This document shows positions 1-43,587 of a stretch of 43,587 nt of DNA, piece by piece. Below the pieces are notes generated by a model, which saw only the letters and a list, made by a program, of their open reading frames with translations, was not told the origin of the DNA and ran no database searches. Origin of the DNA: a virus (taxonomy: Duplodnaviria; Caudoviricetes); the IMG/VR virus record IMGVR_UViG_3300012942_000015, positions 1 to 43,587 of that record; one strand, 5' to 3'. Each line of letters opens with the position of its first letter. Within the stretch, counting starts at the first letter, position 1. Position numbers and translations under genes: made by a program.

Positions 1-123
1 GACTCGTGGACGCTCGTCTCGGAATGGGAGTCTGGCCGGTGTGCCTCCGTGATCGACGTCACTCGCGCCAGCACGCCGCTCCGGAAACCGGCAGGTTCTT
101 GGTTCGAGTCCAAGTGGGGGAGC
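1..123. repeat. Left copy of 123-bp terminal direct repeat (circular assembly overlap)
   Basis: Identical to 43465-43587; the repressor reading frame runs continuously across the join. Confidence 0.95.
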
Positions 124-401
124 TCCTTCGGCCCGGTCTTTTCGAAGACCGGGCCTTTTTCGTATCTGAGCCACTCGAGCCGCGCGCCCGTCGCATAGGC
201 GATCGCACTCAGGACGGTGTCCTTCGGTCGCTGATTGCCTGCCTCGTACTTCGCGAGCGTGCCGCGATCGGTTCCGATGATCCGCGCGAACTCTGTCTTG
301 TGCGTACCGAAGCCGACAATTTCGCGGACCTTCCGAATGCGATCGCCCACATGGAACGGCGACTCATCCCAGGGATTGTGGAGTGGCGTCACGTTGCTCA
401 T
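1..401 (-). CDS. Immunity repressor, Xre/cI-type HTH; 5' part (ATG at 401). Continues across the circular join to TAA at 43425; 146 aa in total
   Basis: Manual translation: MSNVTPLHNPWDESPFHVGDRIRKVREIVGFGTHKTEFARIIGTDRGTLAKYEAGNQRPKDTVLSAIAYATGARLEWLRYEKG... Typical HTH_3 pattern, divergent from a cro/xis-like gene, upstream of the integrase. Not in the ORF track. Confidence 0.9.
   Translation of the reverse strand, partial: MSNVTPLHNPWDESPFHVGDRIRKVREIVGFGTHKTEFARIIGTDRGTLAKYEAGNQRPKDTVLSAIAYATGARLEWLRYEKGPVFEKTGPKELPHLDSNQEPAGFRSGVLARVTSITEAHRPDSHSETSVHE
86..123 (+). other. attP common core: 3' half of a tRNA, probably tRNA-Asn(GTT)
   Basis: AACCGGCAGGTTCTTGGTTCGAGTCCAAGTGGGGGAGC reads as anticodon 3' stem CCGGC, variable loop, T arm CTTGG-TTCGAGT-CCAAG, acceptor strand TGGGGGA and discriminator G. 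No 5' half. Asn identity is recalled from actinobacterial tRNAs, not searched. Confidence 0.85.
130..160 (+). terminator. Intrinsic terminator just after the att core; would terminate the reconstituted tRNA in the prophage
   Basis: GGCCCGGTCTT-TTCG-AAGACCGGGCC perfect 11-bp stem followed by TTTTT. Confidence 0.85.
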
Positions 402-15802: not shown

Positions 15803-15890
15803 CCCGATGAGGCGCGGCTCGACGCTCTCGGTTACGTCAAGTAGACGATCTATGCGAACGCTGCTGGCCGAGGTCGCGGAACGGCTGCGC
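15803..15890 (+). pseudogene. Decayed paralog of the gene at 41918-42241
   Basis: PDEARLDALGYVK*TIYAN then LLAEVAERL, versus PDEARLDALGYVEQTIYAN...LLQEVAERL. Confidence 0.85.
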
Positions 15891-29478: not shown

Positions 29479-32238
29479 ATGGCCAAGAGCCCCGGCGGGA
29501 AAAGCGCCGGGCGCGTCTCCATCCGAGTCGTGCCCGACGCATCCCGATTCAAAGAGGACCTCAAGAAGTCCCTCGAACGGATCGAGAAGAGCACCCAGCT
29601 GCAACTGCCTCTCGCGCTCGACACGCGAGACGCCGAGCTCAGCATTCGGAAGTTCCAGAAGAAGTGGAACGGCGAAGACGTCACCCTCGACGTTGACGCC
29701 GCCACGGCTGGCGCGTCCGCCCACATCGCCGAGGTCACCCGCAAGCGGACCGCGAAGGTCGACGTCGACCTGACGAAGACATCGATCGCGAAAGCCACCA
29801 CACTGATCGCGTCGCTGTCCGGCGCCCGGGTCACCACCGACCTCGTCAAGGGGCTCAGCAGCCGGCTGCAGAACCTCGACCGGTCTCTGCCGAAGCTCGC
29901 GCTCGTCGTCTCCTCGATCGGGTCCATCGGCGCGATGGCTCTCAGCTCCGGTGCCGGGATCCTGACCATGGCCGGTTCGCTCGCGACCCTCGCGGCGCTG
30001 GCCGCACCCGTCCCCGGCCTGCTCGCCGCGGCCGGCGTCGCCGGCATTGCGTTGATCGTCGCGCTCAAGGACGCCAGCACCCAGCTCTCCTCGCTCAACC
30101 CGCTGTGGAAGCAGCTGCAGACCACGATCCAGAACAACTTCTGGGCCAAGGCGAAGCAGCCGATCCTCGACCTCGTCAACGGTGTCTTCCCGCAGCTGAA
30201 GAAGGGCCTCGGCGACGTCTCCAGCTCGCTCGGCACCTGGGCCGGCTCCGTCGCAGGATCCTTCCAGAAGGCGTTCGGCGGCAGCGTGCTCACCGGGATG
30301 ATGTCCAAGCTGTCGCAGGCCATCAAGAACTCGACCGCCGGGACCGACGCGTTCGCGTCCTCCATCGCGGCGCTCGGACAGTTCGGTGCCCAATACCTGC
30401 CCGGCATCGGCACCTGGTTCTCGGACATCTCGATCCAGTTCAACGGCTGGATCCAGAAGGTCGCCTCCGACGGCACTCTCCAGACCTGGGTGTCGAACGC
30501 GATGACCGTGCTGCAGCAGCTCGGCTCCATCATCGGCTCCGTCGTCTCCATCATCGGCAGCCTCTTCAAAGCCGCTCAGGCCTCCGGATCCTCCGGGCTC
30601 GACACGCTCACGAACGCGCTGCAGAGCATCTCCGACATCGTCGCGTCACCGGCTTTCCAGTCCACGATGACGACGATCTTCACAGGTGCCGCGGCCGGCG
30701 TGAAAGGGCTCTCCGCGGCGCTCGCCCCGATCGGCGGCATGCTCGGCGCGCTCGCACCAACCCTCAGCACCCTGTTCAGCGGCATCGGCACCACCGTCGG
30801 CGGCGCTCTCTCCGCGATCGCCGGCGCGCTCTCGCAGCCGGCGTTCGCCGAAGGTCTCACCGGCTTGTTCGCCGGGCTCGAGGCCGGCATCCAAGCGATC
30901 CAGCCGGCGCTGCCCGCCATCGCCACCGCGCTCGGCGCGGCCGCGCAGTTCGCTGGTGCACTGGCTGCACAGCTCGGGCCCGTGCTCGGTGCCGCGATGC
31001 AAGCGCTCGCGCCCGTCATCACGGGCGTGTTGCAGGCCGTGCAGCCGCTGATTCCCGTGCTCGGTGGGCTGCTCGTGCAGGGCATCCAGCTCGTCGCACC
31101 GCTCCTGCAGGGCCTCGCACCGCTGTTCGCCGCATTCGTGCCCTACATCACCGCGGCCGCGCAGGCGTTCCTTCCCTTCATCCAAGCGATCCTCCCGCCG
31201 CTGATGAAGCTCATGAACGCGCTCATCCCCATCGTGACCGGCGTGCTGGCCGCGATGCAGCCTTTGATCGCCCCGATCCTGCAGCTCGCGCAGGCGGCCC
31301 TCGTGCCGCTCATCGGCGTCGTCACCGCGCTGCTGCCGGTCTTCACACCGATCGTGCAGCTGCTCAGCTCGATCCTCCTGCCGTTGATTCAGATGCTGAC
31401 ACCCGTCATCGGGATGCTCGCGCAGGTGTTCCTCCAGATCGCGCAGGCGCTCGCCCCGATCATCGCGGCGATCCTGCCGCCGCTCGCGTCGCTGTTCCAA
31501 GCGTTGATGCCCATCATCTCCGCGTTGCTCGGCGACTTCATGGCGCTGATCTCACCGATCCTGCAACTGATCTCACCGCTGCTGCAGCTGATCGGGCCCA
31601 TCCTCAACCCGCTGATCAGCTTGTTCACCACGCTGATCACGGCCGTGCTGTCGCCGATCGCGCCGATCCTGAAAGCCATGCAGCCCGCGTTCTCCGCGAT
31701 CGCGTCCGTGATCGGTGACGTTCTGATGCCCGTCATCAAGACCATCACGACCGTGCTGAAGGGCCTGATCGACTTCCTCACCGGCGTGTTCACCGGCAAC
31801 TGGAAGAAGGCATGGAACGGGATCGTCGAGATCTTCACCGGAATCTGGAACGGGATCGGCGACATCGTCACCGGCGCCATCAACGGGCTGATCGACCTCG
31901 TCAACGGGCTCATCGGGTCCGTGAACGCGATCACCTCAAAGATCGGCATCCCGAAGATCCCGAAGATCCCGCACCTCGCATCCGGTGCCGACGTCGAAGC
32001 CACGCCAGGCGGCACGACCGTCGTGCTCGGCGAAGGAGGCGAGACCGAGACCGTCACGAACTACGGCACCACCAACCGGCTCATCGAGCTCGCGAACAAG
32101 CTCGCAGCCCGCGCCCTGTCGGCTGATGGTGCGCACGTCGACGCGCCCATCACGATCTACACGCCCGAAACAGACGGCCGAATCCTCGGCCGCCAACTCG
32201 GCGCCGAGCTCGAGCGTTCACTCGCAGGAGGAGTGTGA
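29479..32238 (+). CDS. Tape measure protein
   Basis: 919 aa; GRVSIRVVPDASRF start; Ala/Leu-rich with periodic prolines; FTGNWKKAW repeat. Confidence 0.95.
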   Translation: MAKSPGGKSAGRVSIRVVPDASRFKEDLKKSLERIEKSTQLQLPLALDTRDAELSIRKFQKKWNGEDVTLDVDAATAGASAHIAEVTRKRTAKVDVDLTKTSIAKATTLIASLSGARVTTDLVKGLSSRLQNLDRSLPKLALVVSSIGSIGAMALSSGAGILTMAGSLATLAALAAPVPGLLAAAGVAGIALIVALKDASTQLSSLNPLWKQLQTTIQNNFWAKAKQPILDLVNGVFPQLKKGLGDVSSSLGTWAGSVAGSFQKAFGGSVLTGMMSKLSQAIKNSTAGTDAFASSIAALGQFGAQYLPGIGTWFSDISIQFNGWIQKVASDGTLQTWVSNAMTVLQQLGSIIGSVVSIIGSLFKAAQASGSSGLDTLTNALQSISDIVASPAFQSTMTTIFTGAAAGVKGLSAALAPIGGMLGALAPTLSTLFSGIGTTVGGALSAIAGALSQPAFAEGLTGLFAGLEAGIQAIQPALPAIATALGAAAQFAGALAAQLGPVLGAAMQALAPVITGVLQAVQPLIPVLGGLLVQGIQLVAPLLQGLAPLFAAFVPYITAAAQAFLPFIQAILPPLMKLMNALIPIVTGVLAAMQPLIAPILQLAQAALVPLIGVVTALLPVFTPIVQLLSSILLPLIQMLTPVIGMLAQVFLQIAQALAPIIAAILPPLASLFQALMPIISALLGDFMALISPILQLISPLLQLIGPILNPLISLFTTLITAVLSPIAPILKAMQPAFSAIASVIGDVLMPVIKTITTVLKGLIDFLTGVFTGNWKKAWNGIVEIFTGIWNGIGDIVTGAINGLIDLVNGLIGSVNAITSKIGIPKIPKIPHLASGADVEATPGGTTVVLGEGGETETVTNYGTTNRLIELANKLAARALSADGAHVDAPITIYTPETDGRILGRQLGAELERSLAGGV

Positions 32239-32240
32239 CC

Positions 32241-33098
32241 ATGGCGACCCTCACCATCGCCGGCCTCGCCCTCTCCGGCGACAAGACGTCGACCACCGGG
32301 TTCTACTTCCGCAACCCGATCGACTGGGAGTCACTCACCGACTCCAAGTCCGACGTCAACGAACGCGCGCAAGCCGACGGCGCGTTCGGTGTCGCGGAGG
32401 ACTACCGGTCGTCGGCGGCGATCTCCGTCGACGGCTGGTACCGCGGCACCGATCGCGCCGACGCGCTCGCCGCGAAGACGATCCTGAAGGCGGCACTGGG
32501 GAAAGGGCTGCCTGCGACGGCCGTCATGGACGACATCGACGGCCGCCGCAGCAGAGTCGTCTCGATCCGCTCCCTGCCGATCGACGACAACCGCAAGTCG
32601 CGGATCTTCACTTTCACGATCCACATGATCGCCACCGACCCGCTCATGTACGGCGACACGATCACCTTCGACGCGGAACCGCGCGTCTCCGGGGGCGGCC
32701 TCCTGTTCCCACTCGGCACCACGGCCACGAAGTACTGGGACTTCGGCGCCGACGGAACCTCAGGCCGGATCACCGTCACGAATGCGGGTTCCGCGGCCAC
32801 CTGGCCGCGTGTACGCGCACGCGGCGGCATGGGGGAGGGGTTCATCGCCGCGTGCCGTGAAACCGGGGAGACGGTCGAATTCGACAGGCAGATACCTGCC
32901 GGATCCGAAGTCACCATCAACCAGCGCACCGGCACCGCGTCGATCGACGGTGAATCGAACGACGTGTCCGGGTTCCTCACCGGCCGCGACTTCTTCGCCG
33001 TGCCCGCGGGAGCGACCAGGAACATCCAGTTCACCGTGCTCGGCGCGAAGACGGGCACACCCGGGTTCTCGATCGACATCGCGCCCGCCTACCTTTAG
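32241..33098 (+). CDS. Minor tail protein (distal tail-like)
   Basis: First gene after the tape measure; ATDPLMYG and VTNAGSAATWP. Confidence 0.8.
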   Translation: MATLTIAGLALSGDKTSTTGFYFRNPIDWESLTDSKSDVNERAQADGAFGVAEDYRSSAAISVDGWYRGTDRADALAAKTILKAALGKGLPATAVMDDIDGRRSRVVSIRSLPIDDNRKSRIFTFTIHMIATDPLMYGDTITFDAEPRVSGGGLLFPLGTTATKYWDFGADGTSGRITVTNAGSAATWPRVRARGGMGEGFIAACRETGETVEFDRQIPAGSEVTINQRTGTASIDGESNDVSGFLTGRDFFAVPAGATRNIQFTVLGAKTGTPGFSIDIAPAYL

Positions 33099-33107
33099 GA
33101 GCACATC

Positions 33108-34025
33108 GTGACGCTGCGCAAGGGTCTACCCGCCAAGAACGCTGCCACCGACGCCGACGACACCCGGTACGACTTCCGCAACCTGTTCGTCGCGAACGCC
33201 GACGGATCGCCTCGAGGCGGCATCACCGCACCCGTGGGAACCGCGCTGCTGTCCTCAACCGACAGCATGGCGATAGCCGTTGCCGACTTCGCCGGGGCTG
33301 CGATCCGCGACGGGGGACCGGTACTGCTGGCCAACGACGGCACGACGAACGTCACACTGGACCCTGCACCGTCGTCGCAGTCACGCCTCGACGTCGTCTT
33401 CGCCGTGCAGCACGACTCGTCCTCCACCGTGTCCGTCCCGGACGACGACGACGATCCCGTCTTCGGCGTGCTCAAGGGCGTCGCTGCGGCGAACCCGGTC
33501 CGCAACCCGGACGGGCTCCCCGCCGGCGCGCTCGAGCTCGGCACCGTGCTCGTCCCATCGACCGCGACAACCACGAGCGACACCGGGGTCGTCATCACCA
33601 CGACCGCACCGTACACGGCCGGCGCCGGCGGGAAGGTCCCCTTCCGCACCTACGACGACCTGCAGCTGTGGACCACCGCGCAGACCGGCCAGAGCGCTTG
33701 CGTCACGAACGATTCCACCGCAGCGTTGAACGGCGATTACGTGTGGTCCGGCAGCGTGTGGGGAAAGCGGCTGCAGGGCGGAACGGTTCAGGTGAACCTC
33801 AACGGAGCCGCGTCGAACAACAACACGGCCACCGTGACCGTCACGTTTCCCGTTCCGATGGTCGAGGTGCCAAGCGTTAGCGTTCAGCATCAGAGCGCCA
33901 ACATTGGCGCCACATGGAACGTGTACAGCGTCTCCACTACGGGCTTCACCCTCACCGGCCACAACGCCGGCGCGTCGTCGCTTCCGTCGGCGGTAATCAC
34001 GGTGGGTTGGATCGCGATTGCCTGA
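33108..34025 (+). CDS. Minor tail / receptor-binding protein with switchable C-terminal domain (variant A in place)
   Basis: N-terminal LDPAPSSQSRLDVV...LPAGALELG; C-terminal VTFPVPMVEVPSVSV...STTGFT...VGWIAI resembles H-type lectin / gp53-like domains. Confidence 0.85.
   Translation: MTLRKGLPAKNAATDADDTRYDFRNLFVANADGSPRGGITAPVGTALLSSTDSMAIAVADFAGAAIRDGGPVLLANDGTTNVTLDPAPSSQSRLDVVFAVQHDSSSTVSVPDDDDDPVFGVLKGVAAANPVRNPDGLPAGALELGTVLVPSTATTTSDTGVVITTTAPYTAGAGGKVPFRTYDDLQLWTTAQTGQSACVTNDSTAALNGDYVWSGSVWGKRLQGGTVQVNLNGAASNNNTATVTVTFPVPMVEVPSVSVQHQSANIGATWNVYSVSTTGFTLTGHNAGASSLPSAVITVGWIAIA
33729..33762 (+). repeat. Left 34-bp inverted repeat of the invertible tail segment
   Basis: AACGGCGATTACGTGTGGTCCGGCAGCGTGTGGG; exact reverse complement at 34323-34356. 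Confidence 0.95.
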
Positions 34026-34053
34026 CGGCGCAGGACGGCTCAGGACCGAGCGG

Positions 34054-34356
34054 CTACGCAGGAGTGGCGTACCAGTTCGTGTTGATCGCCGACGGATACG
34101 ACGCGATCCGCACGACGCGGAATGTGAAGCCCGTTTTGGTGACCGTCGCGAGCTGCGCCCACTGCACGGCGCTGCCGCCAACCTCCTCTAGCTGAACGAT
34201 CGGCGGCGCAGGGTACGCGATCGGGAACGTGACCGTCTGCGTGTCCGACCAGTCCAGGCCGCTCGACGAAGACCCCTGCGCAGGGTTCGCATTCGTGTAC
34301 GTCCCATGCACCAGCACCGGGACCCACACGCTGCCGGACCACACGTAATCGCCGTT
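34054..34356 (-). CDS. Silent alternative C-terminal cassette (variant B) of the tail protein
   Basis: NGDYVWSGSVW-VPVLVHGTY...QTVTFPIAYPAPPIVQL...TKTGFTFRV...NWYATPA*; same domain pattern as variant A; in frame after inversion. Confidence 0.88.
   Translation of the reverse strand, partial: NGDYVWSGSVWVPVLVHGTYTNANPAQGSSSSGLDWSDTQTVTFPIAYPAPPIVQLEEVGGSAVQWAQLATVTKTGFTFRVVRIASYPSAINTNWYATPA
34323..34356 (-). repeat. Right 34-bp inverted repeat
   Basis: Exact reverse complement of 33729-33762. Confidence 0.95.
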
Positions 34357-34374
34357 ACCGGACCGGAGGATGCC

Positions 34375-35592
34375 ATGACCCGCTACATCATCGGCGACGT
34401 CCGCACCGGCCGACGCATCCAGGATCTCAACGTTCTGACCGGCCCGTGGGACGACCCGCTCAACTCGGCCGAGACCGTGACCGCGACCATCGACCTGAAC
34501 GACCCCGACATGCGCGCCCTGAACCTGCGCGCGTCGGCGACGCCGGCGAAGAGCTTCCTCGTCGTCGTGGAGAAGAACAAGGTCATAGGTGGCCCGATCT
34601 GGACCCGGAAGTACGACTGGGGCAAGAGGCGCCTGCAGCTCGGCGCGAAGGGATTCGCGTCGATCTTCGATCACCGGCTGATCATCCCTCTGCTCGCGGG
34701 CACGATCGACGTCGACGATTGGCTCGTTCCGGACCCGAGCGATAAGACGAAGACGATGGCGAACCCGGATCTCGCCACAACCGAGTCCGGCCTCTCGTAC
34801 GGGACCATCGCGAAACGGCTCGTGCAGCAGTGCCTCGACTGGACCGGCGGCAACCTGCCGGTCGTGTTCCAAGACGACGCAGCGGGCACCCACAGCGACA
34901 CCGTCGAAGGCGTCGACTTCAAGTTTCTCGGCGACAAGCTGCGCGACATCACCGCGCTCGAGAACGGTCCTGACATCAACTTCCTCGGCCGCTTCACCGA
35001 CGACAAGCTCGGCATCGAGTGGCTGATGCAGACCGGCAGTGACGAGCAGCCGCAGGTCTCCTCACCGTCCGTCACCCGATGGAACGTGACCGCACCGCTC
35101 AGCCCGGTCTCGAACCTCGTCACCAATGAGGACGCCACCGCGATGGCCTCGATCGCGTGGGGATCCGCCGGGCGCTCCGCCGACACCGTGCTCGTCTCCC
35201 GCCAGATCGACGACACGCTCATTGACGCCGGCTACCCGCTCATGGAAACGCTCGACACCTCGCACACGTCCGTCGAGTATCAGTCCACCCTCGACAAGTG
35301 GACGTCGGAGAACCTTGTCGCTGGCCAGCAGGCGCAAGAGACCTGGACTTTCGATGTCGAGGCGTACCCGGTCGATGAGAACGGAAAGCCCGCGGGCCCG
35401 CAATTCGGGTCCTACTCCAAAGGCGACTACTGCGAGCTCGACATCCAGAAGTGGGACCCCGAGACGAAGATCGGCGATCCCTACTACGCCGAGGGAGGCA
35501 CGAAGCAGATGCGCATCATCGGGCTCTCCGGCGACGAGAAAGCCAGGACGATCACCGTCAAGACCGCACCCGTGCCCGTAGGTGCACTGTGA
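34375..35592 (+). CDS. Minor tail protein
   Basis: GGAGG RBS; GGPIW and ENGPDINF motifs of actinophage tail proteins. Confidence 0.85.
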   Translation: MTRYIIGDVRTGRRIQDLNVLTGPWDDPLNSAETVTATIDLNDPDMRALNLRASATPAKSFLVVVEKNKVIGGPIWTRKYDWGKRRLQLGAKGFASIFDHRLIIPLLAGTIDVDDWLVPDPSDKTKTMANPDLATTESGLSYGTIAKRLVQQCLDWTGGNLPVVFQDDAAGTHSDTVEGVDFKFLGDKLRDITALENGPDINFLGRFTDDKLGIEWLMQTGSDEQPQVSSPSVTRWNVTAPLSPVSNLVTNEDATAMASIAWGSAGRSADTVLVSRQIDDTLIDAGYPLMETLDTSHTSVEYQSTLDKWTSENLVAGQQAQETWTFDVEAYPVDENGKPAGPQFGSYSKGDYCELDIQKWDPETKIGDPYYAEGGTKQMRIIGLSGDEKARTITVKTAPVPVGAL

Positions 35593-38860: not shown

Positions 38861-39211
38861 ATGTCTGGATTGAGTGCTGCCGCTCTGGCTGTGGGCGGCG
38901 CGGCGATCGCCGCGGATGCGAAGTACCTGCAGCTGCATTCGGCTGCACCTGGGTCAGACGGCACCGGCAGTGAGACGGGTTCACGCACGGCGTGCACGTG
39001 GGAGTCGGACGCGTCCGGCAACCTCAGCCTGTCGGCAGCGGTCGCGTTCACCGGCCTGACGGCGTCCGGTGCGGTCACGCACGTGACGGCATGGTCTGCC
39101 GAGTCCGCGGGCACGTGCCTGGGGGTGTGGGCGCTGACCGGTGATCAGGCCGCGAATGCGGCCGGGCAGTACACGGTCGACAGCCTGAGCAACACCGCCT
39201 CCGCCAGCTGA
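38861..39211 (+). CDS. Putative tail fibre-associated protein
   Basis: YLQLHSAAPGSDG...VTHVTAW.AES.GT pattern. Confidence 0.7.
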   Translation: MSGLSAAALAVGGAAIAADAKYLQLHSAAPGSDGTGSETGSRTACTWESDASGNLSLSAAVAFTGLTASGAVTHVTAWSAESAGTCLGVWALTGDQAANAAGQYTVDSLSNTASAS

Positions 39212-39222
39212 AGGACCCGCTG

Positions 39223-40629
39223 ATGGCTTACCCGGCCCCGGTGGTCGCGTGGGCGGCCGACGAAGGCACCGGAACCACCGTCGCGGACTATTCCGGGAAT
39301 GGTCACACCGGCAATGTGCAAGGCGCTGTCGCGTGGGTCGCCGGTCATCCTCCGCACACGTACGCGACTCAGGGTGAGGCGGGCAACGCGCCGGCGATCT
39401 GGTTGGAAGGCGTCAGCCTGTTCTCCGGGTCGAAGACCGCGACGCTGATGTGTTGGGTGAAAGCAGTCAGCTACACCGGCACCGGCGACCTGATCGAGAT
39501 CCGGTCCACGCTGGATGACTCGACCACGGCGTTCACGATCTTCCGGCCCTCGAAGACGACGCTGCAGACCGAGGTTCACGACTCCAACGGCACGAACACC
39601 GACACGGCCCCGGTGACGGTGACGACGACAGGCGTGTGGAATCACATCGCCGCGGTCCTGTCAGAAACTTCGTTGGTGCTGTACGTGAACGGCACACAGG
39701 TTGCATCCCAACCGGTGGCCGGCACCGGCGACCTCGGTGATGTGAAGTACTTCTACGCCGGCGGCACGAACACGAAGTACAACCAGGGCGCCGTCAACGA
39801 CGTGCGCCTCTTCGATGTCGCATTGTCGGCGGCGGATGTCGCCCACTTCATGGACACGCCCGCGAACGGTGTGCCTGAGGGTTCCGGGACTGGTTCGTAC
39901 GGCTTCGCGGGTGCCGCGTCGGGGTCGCGAGCCTCGCACGGTGCCGCGACCGGTGCGGTGGCCTTCGCCGGTGTGGCGTCGGGCAGCACGGCCATGCATG
40001 GCACGAGCTCGGGCAGTCTCGACTATGAGGGGTCCGCGTCCGGGCGACTGTCACCGCGTGGTGCCGCTGCTGATGCGGTCGTGTTCGAGGGTTCAGCGTC
40101 GGGGAGCGAGGATCCTGCCGGGACCGCATCCGGTGACATGGCATGGTCCGGCACTGCGTCGGGTCATGCACCGTCCCTCACGGAGTCGCACGGTCACGCG
40201 ACCGGCAGCTACGCATTCGACGGTGCAGCATCCGGGTCCACGCAGCGACACGGGAGCGCATCAGGCGTGTTCACCTACGAGGGTGGGGCGGCAGGTCACC
40301 TGGACACTCACGGTGCCGCACACGGCGACCTCGCCTATGTGGGCACCGCTTCCGGGCACGCGCCCTCGGTCGGTGTCCCGCACGGTGATGGTGTAGGCGT
40401 CTACCAGTACGTCGGCGCAGCTGCCGGTGCGACCGACATGCACGGTGCTGCGTCCGGGGTATTCGCCTACGCGGGGTCCGCGCATGGTCGCTCATCGTCG
40501 GCTCCCGCATTCCCACCCGTACGGACGCTCACGGGCACACCGATCGCGCTCACGCTCACCGGCACACCCGTCGAGCACACCCTGGCTGGCACCCCGCAAC
40601 CTCACACTCTGAAAGGTCGTGTCCCGTGA
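39223..40629 (+). CDS. LamG/concanavalin-like domain protein with Gly/Ala/Ser repeats (probable fibre)
   Basis: DEGTGTTVADYSGNG...WNHIAAV...LYVNG...DVRLFDVALS, then ~15-aa repeats. Confidence 0.85.
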   Translation: MAYPAPVVAWAADEGTGTTVADYSGNGHTGNVQGAVAWVAGHPPHTYATQGEAGNAPAIWLEGVSLFSGSKTATLMCWVKAVSYTGTGDLIEIRSTLDDSTTAFTIFRPSKTTLQTEVHDSNGTNTDTAPVTVTTTGVWNHIAAVLSETSLVLYVNGTQVASQPVAGTGDLGDVKYFYAGGTNTKYNQGAVNDVRLFDVALSAADVAHFMDTPANGVPEGSGTGSYGFAGAASGSRASHGAATGAVAFAGVASGSTAMHGTSSGSLDYEGSASGRLSPRGAAADAVVFEGSASGSEDPAGTASGDMAWSGTASGHAPSLTESHGHATGSYAFDGAASGSTQRHGSASGVFTYEGGAAGHLDTHGAAHGDLAYVGTASGHAPSVGVPHGDGVGVYQYVGAAAGATDMHGAASGVFAYAGSAHGRSSSAPAFPPVRTLTGTPIALTLTGTPVEHTLAGTPQPHTLKGRVP

Positions 40630-41614: not shown

Positions 41615-41636
41615 GACTGAGAGCCGGTTCTCAGTC
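41615..41636. terminator. Hairpin closing the integrase/cassette operon
   Basis: GACTGAGA-N6-TCTCAGTC overlapping the stop codon at 41631. Confidence 0.45.
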
Positions 41637-41921
41637 CGAATCCCGCGTGTATCCGCGGATATCTTTCTTGATCGATGACCCTGAATTGTCCGATACAGGG
41701 CGGTGGTACATGCGCCACCCTGTTCCCTCTTCGCGGGCGAGGCACCACGAGCAGAGACGGATCCGCGCGAACGGTGGCGCGCCGAAGTCGCGGCATGCTT
41801 CGTCGCTGGGGAAGTACGTCACCACGAGCACGCGATCGCCAGGGTTGATCTGGCATGGGTGAGCGAATTCCGCCGAACACGTTCCTGCCTTGCGCGACTT
41901 CACGATCTTCGTGCTGCTCAT
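41631..41921 (-). CDS. Cassette gene 4, small Cys-containing protein
   Basis: MSSTKIVKSRKAGTC...INPGD...LCSWC; ATGA overlap and GGGAG RBS. Confidence 0.75.
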   Translation of the reverse strand: MSSTKIVKSRKAGTCSAEFAHPCQINPGDRVLVVTYFPSDEACRDFGAPPFARIRLCSWCLAREEGTGWRMYHRPVSDNSGSSIKKDIRGYTRDSD

Positions 41922-42241
41922 GGCTCGCTCCCTGAATTCGGCGATACCGGGACGAGCTCGAACCACGCGCCGCACTCGCATGCGTGCGCGTCGCCGTGGT
42001 CTTGCGGCGCGCAGCAGACGTGCGTGTGACCCACGTCGACGAGACTGTCGATCGTCGCGCCGCACTCGGGCGCGATGATCTCACCGTCGAGCATCAGCCG
42101 TTCGGCGACCTCTTGCAGCAGCTCGAGCACGTCGGCGTTGCTCCACGTGCTCGGCTCGGGGTTGTCCTCGTTCGCGTAGATCGTCTGCTCGACATATCCA
42201 AGCGCGTCGAGCCGTGCCTCGTCGGGTGTTGCGTTGCTCAT
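41918..42241 (-). CDS. Cassette gene 3, with Cys/His-rich C-terminus
   Basis: ATGA overlaps; CGA...HVC...H...HACECG; paralog remnant at 15803. Confidence 0.8.
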   Translation of the reverse strand: MSNATPDEARLDALGYVEQTIYANEDNPEPSTWSNADVLELLQEVAERLMLDGEIIAPECGATIDSLVDVGHTHVCCAPQDHGDAHACECGAWFELVPVSPNSGSEP

Positions 42242-42438
42242 TGCTCGCTCCCTGAATTCGATGATTCGTGGTCACGGAAGTCTCGACGCGCGGCGGCAGA
42301 CGCGACCTCGTAGGCGCCGACGTTGCCGTAGCGTGCACGCATCGCGTGGCCGGCGATCCAGCCGCACGAGCAGCGCGGCTGGTAGTAGACAGTGCGCCCG
42401 AATATTGTTGCCGTCGTGCGGTCCTCGTGCTCGCTCAT
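42238..42438 (-). CDS. Cassette gene 2, CSCGW-type small protein
   Basis: ATGA overlaps; YQPRCSCGW...H. Confidence 0.75.
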   Translation of the reverse strand: MSEHEDRTTATIFGRTVYYQPRCSCGWIAGHAMRARYGNVGAYEVASAAARRDFRDHESSNSGSEQ

Positions 42439-42569
42439 CGCTCCCTACCCGAATTCGATGATTCGTGGCACGAGCAGTTGCACGCGGCATCCCTGCAGCG
42501 CTCGTGCTCGTCGTACCCCTTGCGGGCGCCGACGCACTCGTCGGAGATCCACCATGTGTCGATGCTCAT
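42435..42569 (-). CDS. Cassette gene 1, 44-aa Cys-rich protein
   Basis: ATG overlaps the integrase stop; C...H..C....CNCSCH. Confidence 0.7.
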   Translation of the reverse strand: MSIDTWWISDECVGARKGYDEHERCRDAACNCSCHESSNSGRER

Positions 42570-43387
42570 GCTGCAACGCGCTCTCTGATGTCGAACGGGT
42601 CGGCGAATGCCGTGCCGTCCGCGGCTGCGATGACGGCGCGGAGGCTGGTGTGCAGGTAGCGCTCGGTCGTCGCGAGCGACGAGTGGCCGAGGAGTTCTTG
42701 CACGGCGCGCAGGTCGCGGGTGGCCTCGTACGCTGCGGTCGCGGCCGCGTGCCGGAGCGCGTGCGGGTTGAACCCTGTGCGCGCCTGGATCTTCTTCTCG
42801 ATCGTGCTCTGATGAAGGTGCCCACCGAACTTGCCGGGCAGGTAATAGTCGGTGCCGCGCTTTTCGAGCTCGGCGACGACCGGCATCCACGTCCCATTAA
42901 TAGGGACATTGCGTGTGCGGCCGCCCTTGCCGGTGACGCGGAAGATGCGTCCGACGCGATGCTTCGGTCGAAGCGTGGCGATCTCGGACAGTCGCAGCCC
43001 GCCCATTCGGCCGGCGAGGATCATGTGCCTCTCCTCGAGCGGGGCGCCGACGAGGCCGAGCTGCACGCCCTCGTCCGTAGCTAGCAGCGGCACGCTTTTC
43101 GGGATCCGCACGGAGTCGAGCTCCGCTGCGGGGTCCGACGCGATGTAGCCGCGCTTGTGCGCCCACTTGTAATAGGAGCGGAACGCGGTCCGGTACGACT
43201 TGATCGTCTCCGGTGCCCGGCCGAGCCGCTCTGTCTGGTCGGCGAGGAACGCCTCGAGGTCATCGATCGTCACCCCGTGCAGCTCGCCGACGAAGCGTTC
43301 AAGGCTTCGCAGTTTCGAGAGATAGATGCCGACCGTGCCGGCCGCCGTCCTGGTCGAAAGCAGATGTCTCCTGTATTCCTCAATCAC
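42566..43387 (-). CDS. int: Tyrosine integrase, short form without an evident arm-binding domain
   Basis: GLRLSE (R), GKGG (K), HALRH, LLGH and TERY catalytic motifs; 273 aa; ends RERVAA. Confidence 0.95.
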   Translation of the reverse strand: MIEEYRRHLLSTRTAAGTVGIYLSKLRSLERFVGELHGVTIDDLEAFLADQTERLGRAPETIKSYRTAFRSYYKWAHKRGYIASDPAAELDSVRIPKSVPLLATDEGVQLGLVGAPLEERHMILAGRMGGLRLSEIATLRPKHRVGRIFRVTGKGGRTRNVPINGTWMPVVAELEKRGTDYYLPGKFGGHLHQSTIEKKIQARTGFNPHALRHAAATAAYEATRDLRAVQELLGHSSLATTERYLHTSLRAVIAAADGTAFADPFDIRERVAA

Positions 43388-43424: not shown

Positions 43425-43587
43425 TTAGAGCGCGACGGGAAGCGTCGTCACGACCGCGTTGTGGGACTCGTGGACGCTCGTCTCGGAATGGGAGTCTGGC
43501 CGGTGTGCCTCCGTGATCGACGTCACTCGCGCCAGCACGCCGCTCCGGAAACCGGCAGGTTCTTGGTTCGAGTCCAAGTGGGGGAGC
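43425..43587 (-). CDS. Repressor 3' part, including the 41-aa tail beyond attP
   Basis: ...EPAG-FRSGVLARVTSITEAHRPDSHSETSVHESHNAVVTTLPVAL* with TAA at 43427-43425. Confidence 0.85.
   Translation of the reverse strand, partial: LPHLDSNQEPAGFRSGVLARVTSITEAHRPDSHSETSVHESHNAVVTTLPVAL
43465..43587. repeat. Right copy of the 123-bp terminal direct repeat
   Basis: Identical to 1-123. Confidence 0.95.

Follow-up and report, generated by a model that had tools for sequence, protein, structure and literature searches.

The stretch of DNA analysed here (43,587 nt; hereafter the window) is a virus record of 43.6 kb, complete and with ends that overlap by 123 bp, and is the genome of a temperate siphophage. 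In its tail region, a distal tail (Dit-like) gene (32235–33098, plus strand; PHROG 5577/33) lies upstream of a gene predicted to encode a receptor-binding tail protein (RBP) of 305 aa (33108–34025, plus strand; PHROG 3398/14469), and one arm of a perfect 34-bp inverted repeat is embedded in the latter. This left arm (33729–33762, plus strand) is in frame and encodes NGDYVWSGSVW, residues 208–218 of the protein, while the right arm (34323–34356, minus strand) is its inverted copy, separated from it by 560 nt. An earlier sequence-only reading had described these repeats as flanking two alternative C-terminal tips, and the description held: the arms are complementary at 34/34 positions, whereas no other perfect inverted repeat in the window exceeds 16 bp, and hexamer shuffles (n = 20) give 14–18 bp. 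Between the arms lie tip A, 87 aa in the expressed orientation (33763–34025, plus strand), and tip B, 89 aa in the silent orientation with an intact frame (34054–34322, minus strand). The frames agree, as had been proposed, such that inversion would exchange one tip for the other in frame (full proteins of 305 aa with tip A and 307 aa with tip B), and the ribosome-binding site of the downstream minor tail gene (34365–35592, plus strand; GGAGG at 34365–34369, ATG at 34375; PHROG 1885) lies outside the repeat and the invertible segment, and so would be left intact. By contrast, a CGTGTGG doublet that had been pointed out in the repeat falls on the codons for its two Val-Trp pairs, and we rejected it as a signal.

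Several measures suggest that tip B is genuinely coding. The minus-strand frame (34356–34054) begins at the right arm, runs intact for 100 codons, and terminates in a TAG that lies just 28 bp from tip A's own stop (TGA); its GC3 (0.86 versus 0.87 in the constant part) is gene-like, and it has the highest codon score among its six frames. Tip A matches Pfam H_lectin and Gp53-like_C with E about 3e-4, below the cut-off, and tip B falls in the same weak family (Gp53-like_C, E = 0.0012, also below the cut-off) and additionally matches a PHROG tail fibre family (E = 1.6e-5); the two tips are 36% identical over 96 columns (11 shared residues counted). Tip-B-like domains also terminate longer proteins—for example, residues 221–315 of 318 in protein P0085. 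The earlier description of this frame as startless does not strictly hold: a GTG within the repeat would start a 96-aa ORF (P0081) on the minus strand. That ORF call, together with the fact that Logan contigs break at both repeats, could be taken to mean that no inversion occurs, tip B being a separate small antisense gene or the repeat an assembly artefact. However, there is no GGAGG upstream of the GTG and no promoter-like site was found in 33000–34600; a contig break is expected at any repeat exceeding the 31-mer, the three resulting pieces are even in depth (52, 51, and 48), and the same architecture recurs in other phages, as described below. We consider this account barely credible.

The AF2 model of the state-A protein (pLDDT 85) is laid out as a shoulder domain (about residues 10–185), a small linker domain (about 172–222), and a lectin-like tip (about 220–305). 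Its N-terminal part aligns with the RBP of lactococcal phage 1358 (4L92) with a middling Z of 7.8 (rmsd 3.0, 129 residues aligned), and tip A (220–305) aligns, again with middling Z (7.5–8.5; rmsd 2.4–2.9, 79–85 aligned), with H-type lectin domains and with the lectin-like domains at the C-termini of tailspikes and pyocin fibres. Foldseek returned nothing at E ≤ 0.001, its top matches being H-type lectins at E 0.05–0.09, and a PDB sequence search gave no match. In the model, the repeat encodes the strand at 209–213 and stops at W218, with the next domain spanning 220–305; the crossover point is thus placed at the predicted domain boundary of the H-type-lectin-like tip. Structure prediction of both tips had been suggested as a check: tip A is lectin-like in the AF2 model, and the single-sequence model of tip B (pLDDT 37.6) is unusable. 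Elsewhere in the genome, Gp80-like and Laminin_G_3 proteins encoded after the lysis genes (38861–40629) form a putative second adsorption module.

Only orientation A is on record for the window phage itself, and no full-length state-B protein was found. The Logan contigs carry no orientation information because the 34-bp repeat exceeds the 31-mer, and in a second run (share 0.08) Logan coverage is limited to 272 bp of the downstream gene. A scan of genome contigs with the tail protein found no relative. A tblastn search, on the other hand, placed the gene in five cultured Bifidobacterium phages (BP677P2/3/4/8 and BP742P1), all of which carry a small antisense ORF after the gene and a 25-bp repeat at the homologous codons. 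Together with 41 IMG/VR relatives, whose hosts are not named, these make up a set of 46 gut loci: 28 intact two-tip cassettes, nine with a single tip, five with a broken partner, and four that are cut. Three tip families (T, R, and F) occur across loci L026–L066, paired as T/R or R/F. Both orientations are represented among the 28 intact cassettes, with T/R in ten (five of them near-identical isolates) versus R/T in seven, and R/F in six versus F/R in five, and a tree built from the 1.4 kb upstream shows the orientations intermixed. These orientations come from assemblies rather than reads, but the repeats, at 14–39 bp, are shorter than an ordinary read. In the pair L046 and L048, the flanks are 98.5–99% identical while the interior is inverted, the switch point lying within the repeats. 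Judging from these loci, the cassette is often gained, swapped, or lost in the gut group, because nine loci are without a partner and five have a broken one.

A single orientation in deep reads and in all relatives had been named as the outcome that would speak against inversion; instead, the gut relatives show both. The central proposal of the sequence-only reading—an invertible, two-state receptor tip with no adjacent invertase—is accordingly borne out by homologous cassettes in both orientations and by a crossover at the modelled domain boundary, though the integrase to which it had pointed as a lead fares poorly (below). The two-state cassette for the RBP tip is thus real and likely functional.

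The gut relatives also bear on what might drive such a switch. The five gut genomes checked yielded no site-specific recombinase: a scan of 41 of the 46 BP677P4 genes turned up neither an integrase nor an invertase, PF00589 was absent from 4/4 gut records, and PF00239, PF07508, and PF01548 were not found in the three of those four records that were tested. The gut repeat, however, reads GCCGATAA-TTGCGA-TTATGTCAGA, which is to say dif arms with a different 6-bp spacer; the predicted B. adolescentis dif is GCCGATAA-TGTACG-TTATGTCAGA (PMC3025954), and the BP677P4 sites agree with it at 8/8 and 10/10 arm bases. Against a matrix built from 34 dif arms of Microbacteriaceae, which is sharpened because the collecting pattern fixed the arms, these two sites score 34.6 and 34.4 bits, the top two in the genome (the next reaches 12.4), and the host dif mean is 35.8 bits. 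Spacer TTGCGA is present in 44/46 left and 29/33 right gut sites, and the outer arm of the partner site, which precedes the silent frame whichever state the segment is in, keeps GC[CT]GATAA in 27/33—a pattern best read as reflecting selection at the DNA level. Conservation of the in-gene site proves little on its own, since 8/9 single-tip gut phages retain a good in-gene dif-like site. Spacers that are the same within a pair but unlike that of host dif are what inversion without integration would require, and reversible inversion of plasmid segments by XerC/D has been described where the two sites have the same spacer (PMC9947245). Because the gut repeats match both the XerC and the XerD arms of host dif, they point to host XerCD, and at the level of the family we regard the case that XerCD drives the gut cassettes as strong, on the evidence of these site comparisons.

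Cassettes also occur, much more sparsely, in Microbacteriaceae-type relatives. Among 86 distinct non-gut homologues, 74 were testable, and a repeat of at least 15 bp was found in 2/74—L021 (22 bp) and L252 (23 bp)—which also have the best junction dif scores (16.8 and 14.1, the next being 7.5). The L021 sites reach 17 and 23 bits on the dif matrix. Silent tips of both loci resemble expressed tips of other family members, with 65% identity to P0006 and 40% to P0063, and the window gene is sister to that of L252 on a quick tree (SH-aLRT 93). None of the Microbacteriaceae-type cassettes was seen in both states. On the same quick tree, the cassette label needs at least three changes, implying repeated gain or repeated loss; the peptide encoded by the repeat is present also in relatives that have no cassette, and the cassette occupies the same N-x-D-Y-V codons in L021, in L252, and in the Bifidobacterium group. 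Searching viral contigs with DNA patterns recovered only L021 as a pair, the 12 other matches being single sites. Single strong dif-like sites (20–31 bits) were observed in unrelated viral contigs (L209, L213, L218, L221, and others), where they are possibly Xer-dependent resolution or integration sites. Separately, L186 and L202 (contig C2 of G329) are two tail-gene homologues in tandem with different tips and without an inverted repeat.

In the window itself, the sites are weakly dif-like, with three of the four arms weak. Placed in the dif register of 11+6+11, the left site (33720–33747, plus strand) has a poor XerC-side arm, spacer CGGCGA at 33731–33736, and a weak XerD-side arm, whereas the right site (34338–34365, minus strand; CGGTCCGGTAA-CGGCGA-TTACGTGTGGT) has an outer arm that is partly XerC-like. 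The two score –9.7 bits (rank 124 of 87,120) and 5.5 bits (rank 2 of 87,120), respectively; the left outer arm is indistinguishable from chance (p = 0.6), and the right outer arm, which precedes the tip B frame in both orientations, reaches only p = 0.02–0.04. Both carry the identical spacer. The top match to the dif matrix in the window (6.6 bits) is instead at 41615–41636, where a perfect 8-bp palindrome is split by a 6-bp spacer (GACTGAGA-N6-TCTCAGTC) and lacks a U-run; it could be an operator or a recombinase-type site. On the host side, a dif-type site was found in 59/61 genomes of the candidate host family, with exactly one in each of the five checked, and the candidate host genomes have two strong PF00589 matches each, not individually typed as XerC or XerD. 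A few Microbacteriaceae genomes (G030, G012, G055, and G281) carry two or three dif-like sites that are near-perfect and differ in spacer, which suggests pdif-like elements.

With these elements in hand, the reading that we advance is that the 628-bp segment is a two-state switch of the predicted lectin-like RBP tip, flipped by host XerC/XerD at two weak, inverted, dif-derived sites; as a whole we consider it evenly balanced between right and wrong. XerCD would bind the 11+6+11 sites sharing the 6-bp spacer CGGCGA, which is unlike the host dif spacer TGCACA. Because the spacer is identical in both copies and differs from that of host dif, recombination would take place between the two phage sites rather than with the chromosome, and would invert the segment. 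With the outer arms staying in place, either tip A or tip B would be joined in frame to the constant 207 residues, and the ribosome-binding site downstream would remain untouched. The two tips would presumably bind different cell-wall glycans, and flipping would probably be slower in the window phage than in its gut relatives. As for the driver in trans, which had been proposed to be the integrase, a host recombinase, or homologous recombination, the first loses ground and the second can now be given a candidate name, XerCD. Since the window's own sites are weak and the driver is read from relatives, we put XerCD as the driver in this phage, by homology, at about an even chance.

Weak sites leave room for two other accounts. 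One is that the segment flips by short-homology recombination across the 34-bp repeat, through a host RecA-type activity or template switching, and that the resemblance to dif is a by-product of the N-G-D-Y-V codons. Consistent with this, the repeat extends 15 bp beyond the XerD-side arm and is longer than those of L021 and L252, the left outer arm shows no resemblance to dif, Erf and RecE are both encoded by BP677P4, and an equally good score on the inner part is reached by 16% of random NGDYVWS recodings (p = 0.16; 8% for L252 and 3% for L021). On the contrary, identity does not start at random—the window and L252 repeats begin at the same AA ahead of the spacer, at the border between arm and spacer—and gut repeats of 36–39 bp with full dif arms exist (L045 and L049), so that the length is compatible with Xer. 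A repeat of 34 bp is also short for RecA, and no Erf/RecT/Sak-type annealing protein was found among the 40 window ORFs scanned in PHROGs; we judge this explanation rather unlikely. The other account, which we think unlikely, is that the cassette descended from an XerCD switch and is now frozen, with tip B a relic or a reservoir for rare rearrangement. Both window sites are decayed, state A alone was found, and loss or breakage of the partner is common in the gut group, as this would predict, but the 34/34 identity of the repeats extends to third codon positions, and the frame of tip B is intact over its 100 codons, with gene-like codon use and a stop placed close to that of tip A.

The remaining candidate is the phage's own integrase, an armless tyrosine recombinase of 273 aa (42566–43387, minus strand) located 8.2 kb from the cassette, beside attP. 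As the sequence-only reading had noted, it is the sole recombinase found: resolvase/invertase (PF00239), large serine recombinase (PF07508), and IS110/Piv domains were not found in the window. The attP core (86–123, plus strand, and again at 43550–43587 in the terminal overlap) is the 3′ half of a tRNA-Asn and falls at the 3′ end of a repressor frame (123–398, minus strand), the repressor being assigned by PHROG. Exact matches to the 38-bp att core occur in 55 genome stretches, including Humibacter, Microbacterium, Catellatospora, and Dermatophilaceae, and a tRNA-Asn is present at the core in 3/3 of these loci that were scanned. The nearest relative found (E = 1e-136) is a prophage in G410, a genome from the genus that holds Humibacter albus, which has an att pair and the same tRNA-Asn target; its integrase is 78% and its large terminase subunit (TerL) 69% identical to that of the window phage. 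Searches at family and genus level added no relative other than G410. On the basis of the att core matches and this sister prophage, the host is likely a Humibacter-like member of the Microbacteriaceae.

That the integrase doubles as the invertase is suggested by its being the only recombinase encoded, and by the fact that the window and L252 have in common both the variant arm CCGGTAA, a single base away from the attP flank CCGGAAA (and likewise from dif CCGATAA), and an integrase (78%); furthermore, a paper title cited by PMC6109161 describes the armless integrase of Brujita as promiscuous. Yet the link originally drawn, a CCGGCAG match between att core and repeat, is absent from the G410 sister prophage, where the att core reads CCGATAG and the repeat has only 4 bp in common with it. 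By chance, 11% of window 34-mers match a 7-mer of the whole core and 4% match one in the core's first nine bases, and we rejected the 7-mer as a signal. In addition, the L021 phage has the same site core with an integrase that is 27% identical to the window's, and the gut relatives are found in both orientations with no integrase in those checked. We regard this possibility as quite unlikely. The window does show the layout of integration-dependent immunity (86–398 and 42566–43387), which is described as combining an armless integrase with an attP at the repressor gene's 3′ end (PMC6109161): the 273-aa integrase ends in VAA, as does that of the G410 prophage, and the repressor frame enters the tRNA-Asn core. 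Nearby, three 36-nt direct repeats (41916–41951, 42236–42271, and 42433–42468) are positioned at the starts of small leftward ORFs beside the integrase and resemble start-associated sequences, and a further inverted pair (15803–15860 and 42169–42226; 58 nt, 84% complementary) is separated by 26 kb.

The cassette would act like the Gin, Cin, and Rin systems, yet it lies outside them because it has no invertase. As in Mu G/Gin, P1 C/Cin, and p15B Min, inverted sites lie in a tail gene, the in-frame swap in those systems concerning a C-terminal host-range part, but they have an adjacent serine invertase (PMC6109161) and the window has no PF00239 match. It resembles the Rin shufflon of dnaJ2 bifidophages in having a constant N-terminus similar to the phage 1358 RBP, swappable tips (about 95–100 aa in Rin), an actinobacterial host, and, if XerCD is the driver, tyrosine-recombinase chemistry; it differs in having two tips, dif-like sites, and no invertase, where Rin has its own adjacent tyrosine invertase, 11-bp rix sites, and several Rv cassettes (PMC6109161). 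Also similar in form is a second inversion that Mavrich et al. 2018 described in bifidophages 689b-1 and Bb423phi2—about 500 bp, two-state, and without a flanking recombinase—for which a driver in trans was proposed but none named, and whose genes had no assigned function (PMC6109161). The two cases share a gene 3′ end that inverts there and would invert here, a small partner gene, the absence of a flanking recombinase, and the layout of integration-dependent immunity; the window gene, however, is a modelled RBP, and in place of the 8-bp site reported there (CAGGGTTA) its family has 11+6+11 copies of dif, a term that does not appear in the main text of that paper (PMC6109161).

Borrowing of host XerCD has parallels of its own. 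Acinetobacter pdif (pXerC/D) modules likewise equip a mobile element with paired dif-like sites whose spacers are identical, their reversible inversions being attributed to host XerC/D, but there whole plasmid modules are shuffled, whereas here the site is within coding sequence and a protein domain would be swapped (PMC9947245). The IMEX phages CTX-phi, VGJ-phi, and TLC-phi also use host XerCD by means of dif mimics, some with a divergent arm, and Xer accepts a divergent XerD arm at TLC-phi attP and at difGGI (PMC5357621); unlike the window phage, whose spacer differs from host dif and whose own integrase targets tRNA-Asn, they integrate at chromosomal dif (PMC5357621). In the open-access literature searched, we found no paper on Xer/dif-driven inversion of a tail tip.

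For the window phage alone, the result is the more modest one of a likely switch whose probable driver is read from its relatives. Across the family, we are inclined to favour, with moderate confidence, a broader interpretation: that actinobacterial siphophages, lytic-looking Bifidobacterium phages included, write dif into RBP codons so that host XerCD may switch their tips; that the N-x-D-Y-V hairpin, already spelling the dif core, was co-opted more than once; and that the window phage represents a weak stage, either early or late. Known tail-tip switches carry their own invertase, and searches that begin from the recombinase would therefore miss a class that lacks one. The in-trans invertase proposed in 2018 becomes directly testable, because BP677P2/3/4/8 and BP742P1 carry near-consensus dif arms. 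Should XerCD prove to be the driver, a phage could vary its receptor-binding tip while encoding no site-specific recombinase at all, and the switch would be tied to a conserved cell-cycle enzyme of the host.
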